Virus record (IMG/VR): IMGVR_UViG_3300014208_000024
Location: 1-64,000 of that record
DNA length: 64,000 bases
Reading direction: 5' to 3' (one strand)
Source: a virus
Taxonomy: Duplodnaviria; Caudoviricetes
In this document: positions 22,316-48,098 of the stretch, piece after piece
How the letters are laid out: each line of letters begins with the position of its first letter
Position numbering within the stretch: the stretch's first letter is position 1
Position numbers and translations under genes: made by a program
The notes under the pieces: generated by a model
The model's input: only the letters and a program-made list of their open reading frames with translations
Database searches by the model: none
Told to the model about the DNA's origin: nothing

Positions 22316-22497
22316 AATACAAAATTTTAAAATTAATACTGATTTTGTCGTCTGGAAAACCCAGACAAATAGATGCTGTATAATGACAATGTATGCCAAA
22401 ATTTAGCAAATAGCATGTTTTTATCTGGAGAATCCAGATAACTTATGCTTTATGAAAAGAATCTAACAAATAGACGCATTGTAATCTTTATAATTTG

Positions 22498-22579
22498 TGA
22501 CCAAAAGGAGAGTCGAACTCCTACACCTTTCGATACCAGCTTCTTAGACTGGGTTGTCTACCAATTCCAACATTTGGCC
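22498..22579 (-). tRNA. tRNA-Leu(AAG)
   Basis: GGCCAAA/TTTGGTC acceptor, CCAGT-CTAAGAA-GCTGG, long V arm. Confidence 0.85.
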
Positions 22580-22584
22580 ATTTG

Positions 22585-22659
22585 TATCCCCTCTGGGATT
22601 CGAACCCAGAAAACTTCTGCTCTTGAGGCAGACGACTTTACCAATTTGCCCAAGAGGAC
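22585..22659 (-). tRNA. tRNA-Leu(CAA), short variable loop
   Basis: GTCCTCT/AGGGGAT acceptor, TCTGC-CTCAAGA-GCAGA. Confidence 0.85.
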
Positions 22660-23526
22660 TTATTTATTTAATTCTTTTTCATAATATTTTATCCATTTTC
22701 TTATTGCATTATCTGATACACCATATTTTATTCCAACTGCACGATAATTTGTTTCTTTTATTTCTTTCAAAAGTTGTTCATGTGAAGGACGATCTACTTT
22801 TCGTTGATTTATTTTTGCACATTCATCACATGTTTTACTCCTGTTTTGTATTTCCTTATTACATTTTGGACAATAATGTTTTTTATGTATTCTTTTGTTT
22901 TTTATTTTTTTAATTATATCTTTTTCTTTAAATTTCAATCCATGTTCAGACATTAATTTGTATATTGCTCCATGATTATTGCTTTTTGTACTCATTCCAC
23001 ATTTTTTCAATACTTCTCTTACACTATTAGATTCTTTTATAATTTTTATTGCCAACTGTTTATCAAGGTGGTTTTTTGTTTTTTTCTTCCCCTTTTCCTC
23101 TATTGCATGACAATTTGGACATAAAACAATTAAGTTTTCCAATTTGTTGTTTTCACTGTTCCCGTCTTTATGATGTAATTCTATAGGAATTTCATTTTTT
23201 TCCCATTCTGTTCTATTACATTGATAACATTTGTGTTCAAAATACCCTTCTTCAATTAATCTCTTTTTTAAAGAATCAGATTTTATAAACAATTCGTTAT
23301 TTAAATATTTAGAAATAGGTGTTTTGTAACCCAAAACCTTTCCTTTACTCCAAGAACTTCCATAAAAATGATTAATATTAATGTTAAATTCTTTGATTTT
23401 ATTCTTTAATGACCTATAATTTCCGCCTGCTGGAATTATTCCAAAATTATTCATTACTTCCCTTAATGAAAAAGAACTATTGACTACATTTTCCAAATCT
23501 TCTTTTTTTATTTTTTTTATTTTCAT
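22660..23526 (-). CDS. HNH homing endonuclease inside tRNA array
   Basis: CYQC...ELHHKDGNSENNKLENLIVLCPNCH. Confidence 0.9.
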   Translation of the reverse strand: MKIKKIKKEDLENVVNSSFSLREVMNNFGIIPAGGNYRSLKNKIKEFNININHFYGSSWSKGKVLGYKTPISKYLNNELFIKSDSLKKRLIEEGYFEHKCYQCNRTEWEKNEIPIELHHKDGNSENNKLENLIVLCPNCHAIEEKGKKKTKNHLDKQLAIKIIKESNSVREVLKKCGMSTKSNNHGAIYKLMSEHGLKFKEKDIIKKIKNKRIHKKHYCPKCNKEIQNRSKTCDECAKINQRKVDRPSHEQLLKEIKETNYRAVGIKYGVSDNAIRKWIKYYEKELNK

Positions 23527-23626
23527 ATATTTTTTTATTTATAAATAGCACAAAAAATTAAAACGCAAAAGAAACACTTGAAATGCCTTTACCTTTTTTA
23601 ATTTAATTATTCAAAGAACCTTTTTG

Positions 23627-23713
23627 TAGCTCAGATCGGAGTCGAACCGACACGGATTTTACAACCCGATGGATTTTAAGTCCATTGCGTATAACCAGTT
23701 TCGCCACTGAGCC
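23627..23713 (-). tRNA. tRNA-Leu(TAA)
   Basis: GGCTCAG/CTGAGCT, ATGGA-CTTAAAA-TCCAT, long V arm. Confidence 0.92.
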
Positions 23714-23719
23714 ATTTTG

Positions 23720-23802
23720 TGCGGGTGAAGGGATTCGAACCCCCACGTCTTTCGACGCTACATCCTAAGTGTAGTGCGTATAACCAGTTTCGCCACACCC
23801 GC
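23720..23802 (-). tRNA. tRNA-Leu(TAG)
   Basis: GCGGGTG/CACCCGC, CTACA-CTTAGGA-TGTAG. Confidence 0.93.
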
Positions 23803-23807
23803 ATTTG

Positions 23808-23891
23808 AGCACATGGAGGGATTTGAACCCCCGACTCTTTCGAGATAACAGTTTTGCAGACTGATGGCTTAGACCACTCACCCACATGTGC
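23808..23891 (-). tRNA. tRNA-Cys(GCA) with long variable arm
   Basis: GCACATG/CATGTGC, U73, loop CTGCAAA, CTC-GAAA-GAG V arm. Confidence 0.82.
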
Positions 23892-23897
23892 ATTTTG

Positions 23898-23984
23898 TAT
23901 CCCCACTCAGATTCGAACTGAGAACGTTTCCATGTATTCCACAGGGTTTAAGCCTGCAAGCTTTTCCAATTTGCTCATGGGGAC
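23898..23984 (-). tRNA. tRNA-Leu(TAA)
   Basis: GTCCCCA/TGGGGAT, GCAGG-CTTAAAC-CCTGT. Confidence 0.85.
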
Positions 23985-23990
23985 ATTTAA

Positions 23991-24131
23991 AATTTAGGGG
24001 AAAAGCAAAAAGAGTGTTGAAGATTTCTCTTCGGAGGATTTGAACCTCATTCCCTTTCGGGAGATTGATTTTTGGTCAATTGCGTAAACCAGTTTCTCCA
24101 CGATGTAACTCTTTTAATGGCCACCTAAATT
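23991..24131 (-). ncRNA. Cassette A: permuted Leu-like tRNA body with acceptor stem capped by a short purine loop
   Basis: AATTTAGG/CCTAAATT and AAAAGAGT/ACTCTTTT flank stems, TGGCCA, TACATC^G; cargo 24019-24101. Confidence 0.75.
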
Positions 24132-24160
24132 AAATTTTCAATATTTTAAAGAACATATAA

Positions 24161-24200
24161 AAACAAAAACGGGAGCAAGTTTTTTTAACTGCTCCCGTTT
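24161..24200 (-). terminator. Attenuator terminator of the Leu/Cys tRNA array
   Basis: AAACGGGAGCA...TGCTCCCGTTTTT; leader TGCTCCC (24257-24263) can pair with GGGAGCA. Confidence 0.82.
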
Positions 24201-24224
24201 CTGGTTTATTGGTTTATCTCGCAT

Positions 24225-24305
24225 TTATGCAAAATCATTCCAGGTCAACTTGCTTTGGGAGCAATTTGATAGTAAGAGGCATAAACACAAAGATAAAGTT
24301 TTCAT
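24225..24305 (-). CDS. Leader peptide MKTLSLCLCLLLSNCSQSKLTWNDFA
   Basis: 7 Leu and 3 Cys in 26 aa, upstream of Leu and Cys tRNAs. Confidence 0.82.
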   Translation of the reverse strand: MKTLSLCLCLLLSNCSQSKLTWNDFA

Positions 24306-24344
24306 AATTTCAGTTTATATTAAATAGTCTAATTTTTCTAATTT

Positions 24345-24371
24345 CTACGCAAAGATATAAAAAAAGTTACA
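24345..24371 (-). promoter_or_regulatory. TGTAAC-N16-CGTAG promoter with overlapping TATCTTTG
   Basis: Recurring motif. Confidence 0.7.
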
Positions 24372-24393
24372 TTAAAAACAAGTTTTTTCCTAA

Positions 24394-24615
24394 TTATTTT
24401 TTATCTTGCTGATTTTCAATACTCTTTTTTTCTATTCCTTTTATTAATTTCTTAATTCTTACAATTTGTCTTCTCCAATTTCCTTTTTGTTCATGAGTAT
24501 AAACAGAAGAAAAGTATATAAAAGCCGCTAAATCTTTTTGATTTTCAATTAAAGATTCAATTCCTCTTTTTTTACAAAAATCTTCCCAAGATTCTCTTTT
24601 GTTTTCTTTAATCAT
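24394..24615 (-). CDS. Hypothetical protein
   Basis: Short ORF. Confidence 0.55.
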   Translation of the reverse strand: MIKENKRESWEDFCKKRGIESLIENQKDLAAFIYFSSVYTHEQKGNWRRQIVRIKKLIKGIEKKSIENQQDKK

Positions 24616-24708
24616 AATATTTTTTTTTCAAATATAGTAAAACTTTTATTAAAAAACAAAAAAACCCCAAACGAATTCGGGGTTTTATAAAAAATTTTGT
24701 TCTCAACA

Positions 24709-25962
24709 TTATACTCCAGAGAAGAAAGTTGCAACAACAACTTGTGGAGTTATATTTGTCATTACCAGAGAATAGAATGATTCTCCAGATACGGCACCAG
24801 TTACATCGCCAATTTTACTTGTTCCATTTACAGTAAATGATCTCAAAGGAGTTTCTTCGTTTGTTGATGCTGACATTGTAATTGTTACTGCTGTTGGAAT
24901 ATATCCATAAGAAGCTGACACGGTATTTGTAGTAGCTGTAATTCCACTTACAATACAAGACGACGAACCAGACAAGGTTCCAATCACAGAATTTAAGAAA
25001 CTAACTCCATTAAAAGTAAACGCACTTAAGTTTGTTGCAGTAGTTGCAGATGTACTTCCAGATGCGGTAGATATGGTTCCACCACTTGCTGATGCTGTTA
25101 TAGGAATATTTACAATAGATGCTTCCATTGAAAATGTTTTTGCTGTTGCAACGTTTGCAAATTCTGTTGTTAAAGTATTTGTATAAGCAGTAACTCCACT
25201 TATACTGCAACTCGATGATCCAGACAAGGTTCCAGTAACAGAATTCAAGAAACTACCATTGTTAAAATTAAGTGTTTTTAAATAAGTTGCTGTAGTTGCA
25301 GTAGAACTTCCAGATGAGCTTATACTTCCTGTGCCAACTACGGATGTGTCTATTGTAAGGTTTACATTAACTGATGACATAGAAAATGTTCTAGCTGTTG
25401 TTACAACATCAAACGAAGCGCTTAGAGTGTGTGCTGTAGATACATTTGTTATTGTATAAGCAGATGTTCCACTAGCAACATAAACCAAACTTCCCATTTT
25501 ACTAACTCCATTATCAACTAAAGTAGATAAACTTGGAACAGATGTAACCACAACATTTCCCGTTGGAGTTATTGTTCCTAATGTTGGACTTTGTTCTGTA
25601 ACAACTATTGTTCTACTGCTTGCTGGTAATACAAGAGTAAATGTAATATTTTCTCCTTCCGATACTGATGATGAAGTTGGTAATATAGTACCTGAATAAT
25701 TTCCAGTAACAGATGCTGTTAAGCGAAATTTTGAAAATTCACTATCACCTGGAACACTAAATGGGTTTGTAAAAGATTTTCCCAAATATGTTTCTATGTG
25801 TCTTAAACGTCTTTCATAGGTACTTAATTGGAGTTGATCTATATGCGTAATTTCTTCAATATCTCTTGATTGTGAGTATGCGTCAATTGTTATATGTGAA
25901 ATTACTCCATTTACCTTATAGTAAAGAGTTCTCTTTTTTGGTGTGTTGTTTTTTATAATCAT
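24709..25962 (-). CDS. Ser/Thr-rich beta-repeat protein, probable virion surface or fibre protein
   Basis: Internal duplication: ATTAT...FLNSV.GTLSGSSSC.(I/V)SG.TA.TNT occurs twice. Confidence 0.65.
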   Translation of the reverse strand: MIIKNNTPKKRTLYYKVNGVISHITIDAYSQSRDIEEITHIDQLQLSTYERRLRHIETYLGKSFTNPFSVPGDSEFSKFRLTASVTGNYSGTILPTSSSVSEGENITFTLVLPASSRTIVVTEQSPTLGTITPTGNVVVTSVPSLSTLVDNGVSKMGSLVYVASGTSAYTITNVSTAHTLSASFDVVTTARTFSMSSVNVNLTIDTSVVGTGSISSSGSSTATTATYLKTLNFNNGSFLNSVTGTLSGSSSCSISGVTAYTNTLTTEFANVATAKTFSMEASIVNIPITASASGGTISTASGSTSATTATNLSAFTFNGVSFLNSVIGTLSGSSSCIVSGITATTNTVSASYGYIPTAVTITMSASTNEETPLRSFTVNGTSKIGDVTGAVSGESFYSLVMTNITPQVVVATFFSGV

Positions 25963-47778: not shown

Positions 47779-47929
47779 AAAACAGGGAAAATTTATAAGA
47801 GTTTGTTTTACGTGCTCTAACCGACTGAGCTATCCCGCCATTTTCCTTTTATTTGTGGCGGGAGCAGGATTCGAACCTACGGCGACGGCATTATGATTGC
47901 GAAGTAACTCTCATTGTTGCCACTGTTTT
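47779..47929 (-). tRNA. Cassette G: circularly permuted tRNA-Met(CAT)
   Basis: 3' half 47856-47900, 5' half 47811-47839; join CG|GCA; GGCGGGA/TCCCGCC; 16-nt linker. Confidence 0.87.
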
Positions 47930-47944
47930 ATCTTAAATATGTTA

Positions 47945-48098
47945 AAAATTAGGGAATTCTTCGCAGAATCTGTTTTTAAGCGCTCTAACCAACTGAGCTA
48001 TCCCCGCATTATTTTTTATTTAGAGCGGGGAACAGGATTCGAACCTATGGCCTCTGTCTTGGAAGGACGATGAAATTCTACATTTTGCCACTAATTTT
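47945..48098 (-). tRNA. Cassette F: circularly permuted tRNA-Gly(TCC)
   Basis: 3' half 48024-48068, 5' half 47979-48007; join CT|GTC restores CTGTC/GACAG; U73; 16-nt linker. Confidence 0.88.

Follow-up and report, generated by a model that had tools for sequence, protein, structure and literature searches.

Results

Leader region and tRNA operon

The window, that is, the whole stretch of DNA that was analysed, comprises the first 64 kb of a virus record, 372 kb in length, from an uncultured phage. Its G+C content is about 29%, and it contains at least 35 tRNA genes, every one of them on the minus strand. At the locus described here, the minus strand carries a promoter, a mini-ORF, a terminator and a group of tRNA genes in that order, with no further gene in between.

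The predicted promoter (24346..24385, minus strand) is of the Bacteroidota type and consists of a TTG at 24381-24379, a spacer of about 21 nt and a TAnnTTTG box (TATCTTTG) at 24357-24350, such a −7 box being the promoter consensus typical of the Bacteroidota (PMC6847099). In the same genome, this promoter element of about 40 nt is repeated before other tRNA arrays, before the GOLLD RNA and before some protein genes. It is followed by a 5′ untranslated leader of 40 nt (24306..24345, minus strand), and the leader ORF begins about 40 nt past the predicted transcription start, with an A at position −3 of its ATG. The untranslated leader contains a conserved box, ACTATTTAA, at 24328-24320, which is retained in the paralogous and orthologous modules described below. 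A natural control is provided by the GOLLD RNA and a suppressor tRNA(cta), which lie behind the same promoter with neither an ORF nor a terminator.

The leader ORF (24225..24305, minus strand) starts with ATG and has 26 codons followed by TAA, among them seven Leu codons (TTA three times, TTG twice, CTC and CTA once each) and three Cys codons (TGT once, TGC twice). A sequence-only reading of the region had already listed these four kinds of Leu codon and the three Cys codons, and both its count and its translation of the peptide were correct. Leu and Cys together make up 10 of the 25 leader residues, compared to 8.9% in the long ORFs of the phage (binomial P = 2.9e-5), and the rare Leu codons CTC and CTA, which represent 2% and 6% of the genome's Leu codons, respectively, are both present. 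For each of the anticodon species encoded in the operon (taa, caa, tag, aag and gca), the leader contains a codon that it can read. The control codons 4–12 (Leu Ser Leu Cys Leu Cys Leu Leu Leu) occupy 24270..24296 on the minus strand, codons 4–9 of which double as the 5′ strand of a helix, P1 (24296-24279). When the 26-residue leader peptide was compared with Pfam and PHROGs, no family match was found. Nor does it carry a proper lipoprotein signal, as residues 12–15 read L-S-N-C, with Asn at −1; past this lipobox-like Cys only 11 residues follow, and their frame and sequence vary among the orthologs.

A spacer of 21 nt separates the leader ORF from the terminator hairpin, behind which the tRNA operon begins with a tRNA-like element (24012..24111, minus strand) that combines a D arm of the Leu type and a long variable arm with a weak acceptor stem; its anticodon loop reads CCAAAAA. 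ARAGORN detects this element (24111-24012) only with a relaxed threshold, and the anticodon position reads CAA, GCA or AAA in the orthologs. Then follow, all on the minus strand, tRNA Leu(taa) at 23897-23984, an 85-nt long-arm tRNA Cys(gca) at 23807-23891, tRNA Leu(tag) at 23719-23802 and a second tRNA Leu(taa) at 23626-23713, these four genes being packed within 23626..23984 with gaps of 4–6 nt. The array is interrupted by an inserted HNH homing endonuclease gene (22660..23526, minus strand; phrog_10822, E = 8e-44), which abuts tRNA Leu(caa) at 22584-22659 (minus strand); comparable insertions break up other arrays. The operon ends with tRNA Leu(aag) at 22497-22579 (minus strand). The downstream array of five Leu tRNAs plus a long-arm Cys tRNA announced by the sequence-only reading is therefore present as described (taa twice, tag, caa and aag; gca, 85 nt). 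Long-arm Cys tRNAs are unusual. The tRNA-Cys(GCA) at 23807-23891 has a U at the discriminator position, and the Cys tRNAs in the orthologous contigs are of both kinds, long-arm (83–87 nt) and ordinary (72–74 nt).

In a distant blastn search of 23500-24720 against a phage GenBank collection, no relative was found, the sole match being an 84-nt tRNA of an Enterococcus phage. Among public sequencing runs, the sequence was listed for three DNA runs, one of which is probably the source sample, and for no RNA run. At the gathering threshold, the Rfam families detected in the window were limited to tRNAs, the GOLLD RNA and an SRP-like RNA, with nothing for the leader. The GOLLD RNA (41517-41900, minus strand; 227 bits) and the small SRP-like RNA (42370-42453, minus strand; 42 bits, barely over the cut-off) both lie in the tRNA region. 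Upstream of the leader, a 417-residue ORF (24709-25962, minus strand) is internally repetitive and has its own strong terminator at 24686-24661. Neither this ORF nor an upstream 73-residue ORF had a match in Pfam or PHROGs.

Predicted RNA pairings of the leader

The 3′ end of the leader region folds into a predicted intrinsic terminator (24159..24203, minus strand), with its 5′ arm at 24203-24187, its 3′ arm at 24181-24164 and a T tract at 24169-24159; the hairpin with the T tract has a free energy of −24.2 kcal/mol and a z score of −7.4. Part of its 5′ arm, 24196-24187, was designated region 3. The strand predicted to compete for it, region 2 (AATTGCTCCC; 24257..24266, minus strand), falls within codons 14–17 of the leader ORF and is locally held in a hairpin, P2, with 24254-24245. 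P2 and region 2 are in turn enclosed by P1, the 3′ strand of which (24214..24230, minus strand) contains the stop codon and pairs with codons 4–9.

The sequence-only reading had proposed that TGCTCCC (24263-24257) could sequester GGGAGCA (24196-24190). This complementarity holds and is in fact longer, as 24266-24257 pairs with 24196-24187 in a duplex of 10 bp with −17.4 kcal/mol, an energy matched by only 0.65% of codon-shuffled ORFs (P = 0.0065). For a transcript ending just ahead of the terminator 3′ arm, the antiterminator pairing is part of the minimum-energy fold. For the complete leader, the minimum-energy fold (z = −7.6) contains P1, P2 holding region 2, and the terminator; P1, P2 and the terminator were also predicted independently by RNAalifold on eight orthologs. 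The region thus presents all the structural parts of a leader-peptide attenuator, namely a leader ORF in the right position, control codons, a terminator and a mutually exclusive antiterminator pairing, and the same antiterminator/terminator design is common to 17 leader/terminator sets. When 24000-24420 was searched with the Rfam amino-acid leaders (Leu_leader, His_leader, Thr_leader and Trp_leader) and the T-box, no match was obtained with E values up to 10.

Six paralogous modules with array-matched leaders

Analysis of the genome's own repeats revealed that the promoter and 5′ leader are present in many copies, six of these copies preceding a tRNA array, with a mini-ORF and then a GC hairpin plus T tract in between. 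The Leu/Cys unit is module A (ORF 24305-24225). The others, likewise on the minus strand, are module B (ORF 35305-35216; Asn, His and Thr array), module C (ORF 4193-4098; Gln, Phe, Arg and Val array), module D (ORF 51671-51600; Asp, Gly, Tyr, Met, Pro and Ala array), module E (ORF 31734-31657; Lys and Ile array) and, outside the window, module H (ORF at G000 72949-72863; Ser, Arg(AGR) and Trp array).

The leaders were found to match their own arrays. Residues of the amino acids served by the own array number 10/25, 12/28, 15/30, 15/22, 11/24 and 12/27 in modules A, B, C, D, E and H, respectively, and those of any foreign array are at most six in all six modules. Of the 720 possible assignments of leaders to arrays, the true one is the single best, both by amino acid and by codon, and each of the six leaders is also enriched individually (P between 3e-3 and 1e-5). 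The match is confined to the ORF frame, since the other two frames rank 445 and 108 of 720; therefore, it is a property of the codons and not of base composition or RNA structure.

The pairing design is repeated as well. The last third of each leader ORF contains a stretch able to pair with the 5′ arm of its own terminator, with energies between −11.8 and −18.9 kcal/mol, and in the matrix of leader–terminator energies the true assignment is again the single best of 720, the paired sequences being unrelated between modules. The first tRNA follows the T tract after about 25 nt in module C and after 2 nt in module H, which leaves no space for a separate promoter; in these modules the tRNAs could be reached only by readthrough of the terminator. 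Module A differs from its sister modules in having region 2 farthest from the stop codon (28 nt, compared to 8–19 nt in the other five), an additional conserved pair of hairpins (P1/P2) and a tRNA-like element at the head of the operon.

In the leaders of modules B, C, D and H, the arrays of which have no Cys tRNA, Cys codons account for 7 of 131 residues, compared to an expected 1.3% (P = 0.002), and most of them flank the antiterminator strand. This excess may be a by-product of G/U-rich pairing, or may represent a cross-link to the single Cys tRNA gene. In module E, a second mini-ORF of 12 codons (31527-31565, minus strand) lies between the Lys/Ile terminator and the Lys tRNAs; it has a Lys/Arg-rich end and a hairpin downstream of it, is kept in the orthologous loci L037 and L049, and may be a second, tandem sensor.

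Suppressor tRNA genes were also observed in this genome: one tta gene (33634-33706, minus strand) is located within the Asn/His/Thr operon, and two copies of a cta gene lie at G000 74251-74324 and 75335-75409 (minus strand). Despite these suppressor tRNAs, the ORFs of the window are open under the standard code, and all six leaders end in TAA. The idea that readthrough of the leader stop by a TAA suppressor tRNA could melt the terminator was considered and rejected, because a second in-frame stop occurs within 18 nt in four of the six leaders.

Conserved boxes around the tRNA genes

Modules A, B, C and D have a conserved 23-nt box, GTTCTTTAAAATATTGAAAATTT (24132..24154, minus strand, in module A), behind their terminators and ahead of the first RNA gene; it is also found directly behind the GOLLD promoter and in other phages. 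A role of this box as an independent promoter behind the terminator (as GTTCTTTAAAATATTG) appears unlikely, as no TAnnTTTG box was seen by eye and modules C and H have a tRNA almost directly behind the terminator. In the form GTTCTTTAAAATATTGAAAAT, the box was located at 24132-24154, 35137-35160 and approximately 42265-42285 (all on the minus strand) and at loci L010-L014. It is placed behind a promoter or a terminator and ahead of the first gene for a non-coding RNA (tRNA arrays, GOLLD), several other large phages being alike in this respect, and shorter versions (TCTTTGACATATTG) are repeated between tRNAs. This box may be a processing signal.

A further conserved box, composed of GGTGGC, a few bases and AGAGTTAC-A/T-TCG, lies ahead of the tRNA-like element of operon A, box and element together occupying 24012-24125 (minus strand). 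The GGTGGC/AGAGTTAC box is also present at 35055-35140 (minus strand), ahead of a partial tRNA in operon B, within a 70-nt insertion, called as an intron by ARAGORN, of the tRNA at 47856-48007 (minus strand), and at G000 338495-338530 (plus strand). It may mark split, permuted or otherwise processed tRNAs.

Orthologous leaders in other phages

Pattern scans of viral and metagenome contigs revealed the Leu/Cys leader in seven further phage contigs, in all seven of which it precedes Leu/Cys tRNAs. The ORF frame is intact to codon 20 in all eight orthologs. In the set of eight sequences, pairing amounts to 97.5% for the antiterminator and 93% for the terminator, each with one compensatory pair (a change from A-U to G-C in the antiterminator), and to 96% and 94% for the inner part of P1 and for P2, respectively. 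Within the module the covariation is weak, as it is reached by 52 of 500 shuffles, and the orthologs are close (81% column identity), the leader identity among them being in part a matter of ascertainment because the leader core was the search pattern of the metagenome scan.

In two of the orthologs (L023 and L040), a 1-nt deletion near codon 21 wholly alters the tail of the peptide. The new stop codon lies at most 4 nt from the original one, and both the P1 nucleotides and the RNA pairings are retained, which suggests that selection acts on the RNA and the codons and not on the peptide. The gap between region 2 and the stop codon, 28 nt in module A and 31 nt in these two sequences, is retained across the eight orthologs. 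In the orthologs of the Lys/Ile module (L037 and L049), the terminator stem is wholly different and region 2 has changed along with it, still 10 nt before the stop, a three-way covariation that links regions 2, 3 and 4.

A scan of viral contigs with a Leu-tRNA D-arm pattern brought one Leu/Cys cluster (L027) in which no leader/terminator module was seen by eye in the inspected regions, indicating that the design is not universal among tRNA-rich phages. The same scan otherwise brought unrelated tRNA-rich phages.

Modelled ribosome positions and the proposed mechanism

The influence of a translating ribosome was computed for the six modules by modelling it as a stretch kept unpaired from a−18 to a+12 around the first base (a) of the A-site codon, and by calculating the probability of the antiterminator in a transcript extending up to the terminator loop. 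In module A, the modelled probability is at least 0.88 with the A site at codons 2–10, falls to 0.60 at codon 11 and reaches 0.28 at codon 12; a ribosome at codons 13–22 blocks region 2, and at codons 23–27 and at the stop it frees region 2 again. In each of the six modules, nearly all own-array codons occupy positions at which a stalled ribosome does not cover region 2, and the blocked zone comes next. A stall at three of the ten Leu/Cys codons of module A (12, 15 and 20) would instead block region 2. Modules C, E and H have region 2 covered in the model when the ribosome stands at the stop codon. In module A, region 2 ends 28 nt before the stop, so a ribosome parked there would leave it uncovered and the corresponding textbook step does not apply.

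At equilibrium, the terminator always forms in the full transcript, with about −24 kcal/mol compared to about −17 kcal/mol for the antiterminator. Therefore, the switch must be kinetic. In the truncated transcript without a ribosome, the antiterminator is preferred at equilibrium (P = 0.94) despite P1 enclosing region 2, which implies that termination by default depends on co-transcriptional trapping of region 2 by P1/P2. As P1 encloses region 2, the antiterminator would cross P1 in the manner of a pseudoknot.

Taken together, module A is probably a ribosome-mediated (leader-peptide) transcription attenuator gating the Leu/Cys tRNA operon of the phage. The promoter, the ORF, the antiterminator, the terminator sharing an arm with it and the adjoining tRNA genes are all present, and the Leu/Cys attenuator put forward in the sequence-only reading is supported mainly by comparison, that is, by the six paralogous modules and the seven orthologous contigs. 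According to this proposal, transcription would start at the promoter (24385-24346) and reach a strong terminator about 185 nt further on, ahead of the tRNAs, and the 26-codon leader ORF would be translated during synthesis of the leader. When Leu/Cys decoding is slow, the matching tRNAs being scarce, uncharged or cleaved, the ribosome would stall at codons 4–11, keeping P1 open and region 2 (24266-24257) free. Region 2 could then take the emerging 5′ arm of the terminator, no terminator would form and the polymerase would enter the tRNA genes. Under replete conditions, either a ribosome over codons 12–22 would cover region 2 while the terminator is made, or the ribosome would already be gone, P1/P2 re-formed and the terminator able to fold. 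The expected outcome is a negative feedback in which the Leu/Cys tRNA set is made on demand and its products shut the operon off.

Discussion

The choice of this logic, with readthrough as the result of a stall at the control codons, follows from a geometry like that of classical attenuators. The opposite logic, with efficient translation of the leader leading to readthrough and a stall leading to termination, as a competence check or a positive feedback, appears unlikely. It draws on the fact that in module A a ribosome at codons 23–27 or at the stop frees region 2 and stalls at codons 12, 15 and 20 cover it, but in modules C, E and H region 2 is covered by the ribosome at the stop codon, and the permissive upstream zone holds most of the own-array codons of every module, an arrangement like that of classical attenuators. 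Moreover, a positive feedback gives no reason for the match between each leader and its own array. The opposite logic is thus possible for module A alone, and fits the sister modules poorly. A mechanism independent of translation, in which P1/P2 would be a direct binding site for a protein or, as in a T-box, for a tRNA, or in which the 185-nt leader would be a small RNA and the ORF incidental, seems more unlikely still, even though the leader is strongly structured (z = −7.6), P1 and P2 are retained in the orthologs and conservation in the late part of the ORF is at the nucleotide and not at the peptide level. No Rfam family, the T-box included, matches the leader region, and the match to the tRNA set exists in the reading frame only, which direct RNA binding would not need. 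In other bacteria, RNAs terminated at an attenuator are able to function in trans (PMC7968998); any such role of the terminated leader would come on top of attenuation.

It is very improbable that the hairpin does no more than end transcription of the 73-codon gene upstream, with the ORF as a fortuitous frame or what is left of a lipoprotein signal peptide and the tRNAs expressed by constitutive leak-through or from an unseen promoter. Lipoprotein signal peptides are naturally rich in Leu and contain Cys, and the start of the leader peptide is indeed signal-peptide-like and ends in Cys; a gene with the same promoter (G000 127186) has a similar hydrophobic N-terminus, and there is no intervening terminator between the 73-codon gene (24615-24394) and the hairpin. 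However, a conserved promoter lies between that gene and the ORF, the ORF stops 11 residues past its last Cys with a tail that is not conserved, and such an origin would leave unexplained both the array-matched leaders of the five other modules (B, C, D, E and H) and the frame specificity together with the complementarity of each leader to its own terminator. The least probable explanation is that the small ORFs encode functional micropeptides and that the terminator merely divides them from the tRNA genes. Conservation of the first 20 codons in eight contigs would agree with this, but the C-terminal third has changed frame in two orthologs, the six paralogous peptides are alike in design only and have no common sequence, and no family match was found.

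One of the closest known attenuators is leuL of Escherichia coli and Salmonella, in which ribosomes translating a run of Leu codons mediate the attenuation. Like leuL, module A has a short ORF with clustered Leu codons, rare ones included, a terminator before the first structural gene and an antiterminator that shares a strand with the terminator, and the expected response is to slow Leu decoding. Unlike leuL, the regulated genes would be phage tRNA genes and not enzymes of leucine biosynthesis, two amino acids would be sensed, there is no relationship in sequence or in Rfam, and region 2 lies 28 nt before the stop within a nested P1/P2 instead of a simple 1:2 hairpin. Sensing of several amino acids through mixed control codons is also a property of the multivalent enterobacterial leaders thrL (Thr and Ile) and ilvL (Ile, Leu and Val), the number reaching six in the sister leaders described here; in thrL and ilvL the set belongs to one biosynthetic pathway, whereas here it would be defined by the downstream tRNA genes.

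Leader-peptide control of components of the translation apparatus, as opposed to a biosynthetic pathway, is likewise represented by pheM-pheST, a leader-peptide attenuator of aminoacyl-tRNA synthetase genes, and by the His leaders before hisS paralogs in bacilli, which are also leader-peptide attenuators (PMC2965389). In those cases the product is a protein enzyme, whereas here it would be the very tRNA whose shortage is sensed, making the autoregulation direct. The proposed system would share with the T-box the use of transcription attenuation to report the state of specific tRNAs. In a T-box, the uncharged tRNA itself is bound by the RNA, by means of a specifier codon and the T-box sequence, and no translation is needed. 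In contrast, the signal in module A is specific to the reading frame and no T-box match was found.

To our knowledge, leader-peptide attenuation, a textbook mechanism, has as its known targets genes for the synthesis or charging of amino acids. The genes regulated by this class are those for biosynthesis, transport or synthetases, whereas the operon described here consists of tRNA genes and an HNH endonuclease gene. Full-text literature searches and a survey paper on attenuators gave no case, phage or cellular, in which tRNA genes are controlled by a leader peptide. The point of novelty is the proposed leader-peptide attenuation of tRNA genes, the sequence-level features of the class being present. 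The regulated product would be a tRNA, with the ribosome as a direct gauge of the decoding capacity for a defined set of codons, feeding back on the same set.

The role of phage tRNA genes has been debated for decades. Views under discussion are codon compensation, escape from tRNA-targeting defences and replacement of depleted or cleaved host tRNAs (PMC10264068). It is tentatively suggested, as a conceivable reading slightly short of an even case, that the attenuators are sensors of a demand-driven tRNA replacement, each operon being kept off until ribosomes stall on the codons that its tRNAs read. Such stalls would occur when host tRNAs are cut by anticodon nucleases or lost with host shut-off, and the phage would counter a tRNA-targeting defence isoacceptor by isoacceptor.

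If attenuation by these leaders is true, large phages would control their tRNA supply operon by operon and not constitutively, and the sorting of tRNA genes by amino acid in these phages would be accounted for. It would also represent a case of leader-peptide attenuation in a Bacteroidota-type system, in which initiation does without Shine-Dalgarno sequences (PMC6847099). The hypotheses of codon compensation and tRNA replacement (PMC10264068) would become testable with a simple reporter, and the leaders could serve synthetic biology as compact, codon-specific sensors of translation. If the demand-driven reading is also true, phage tRNA genes would gain a purpose that can be read directly, and the system itself would report which tRNA species are being attacked.
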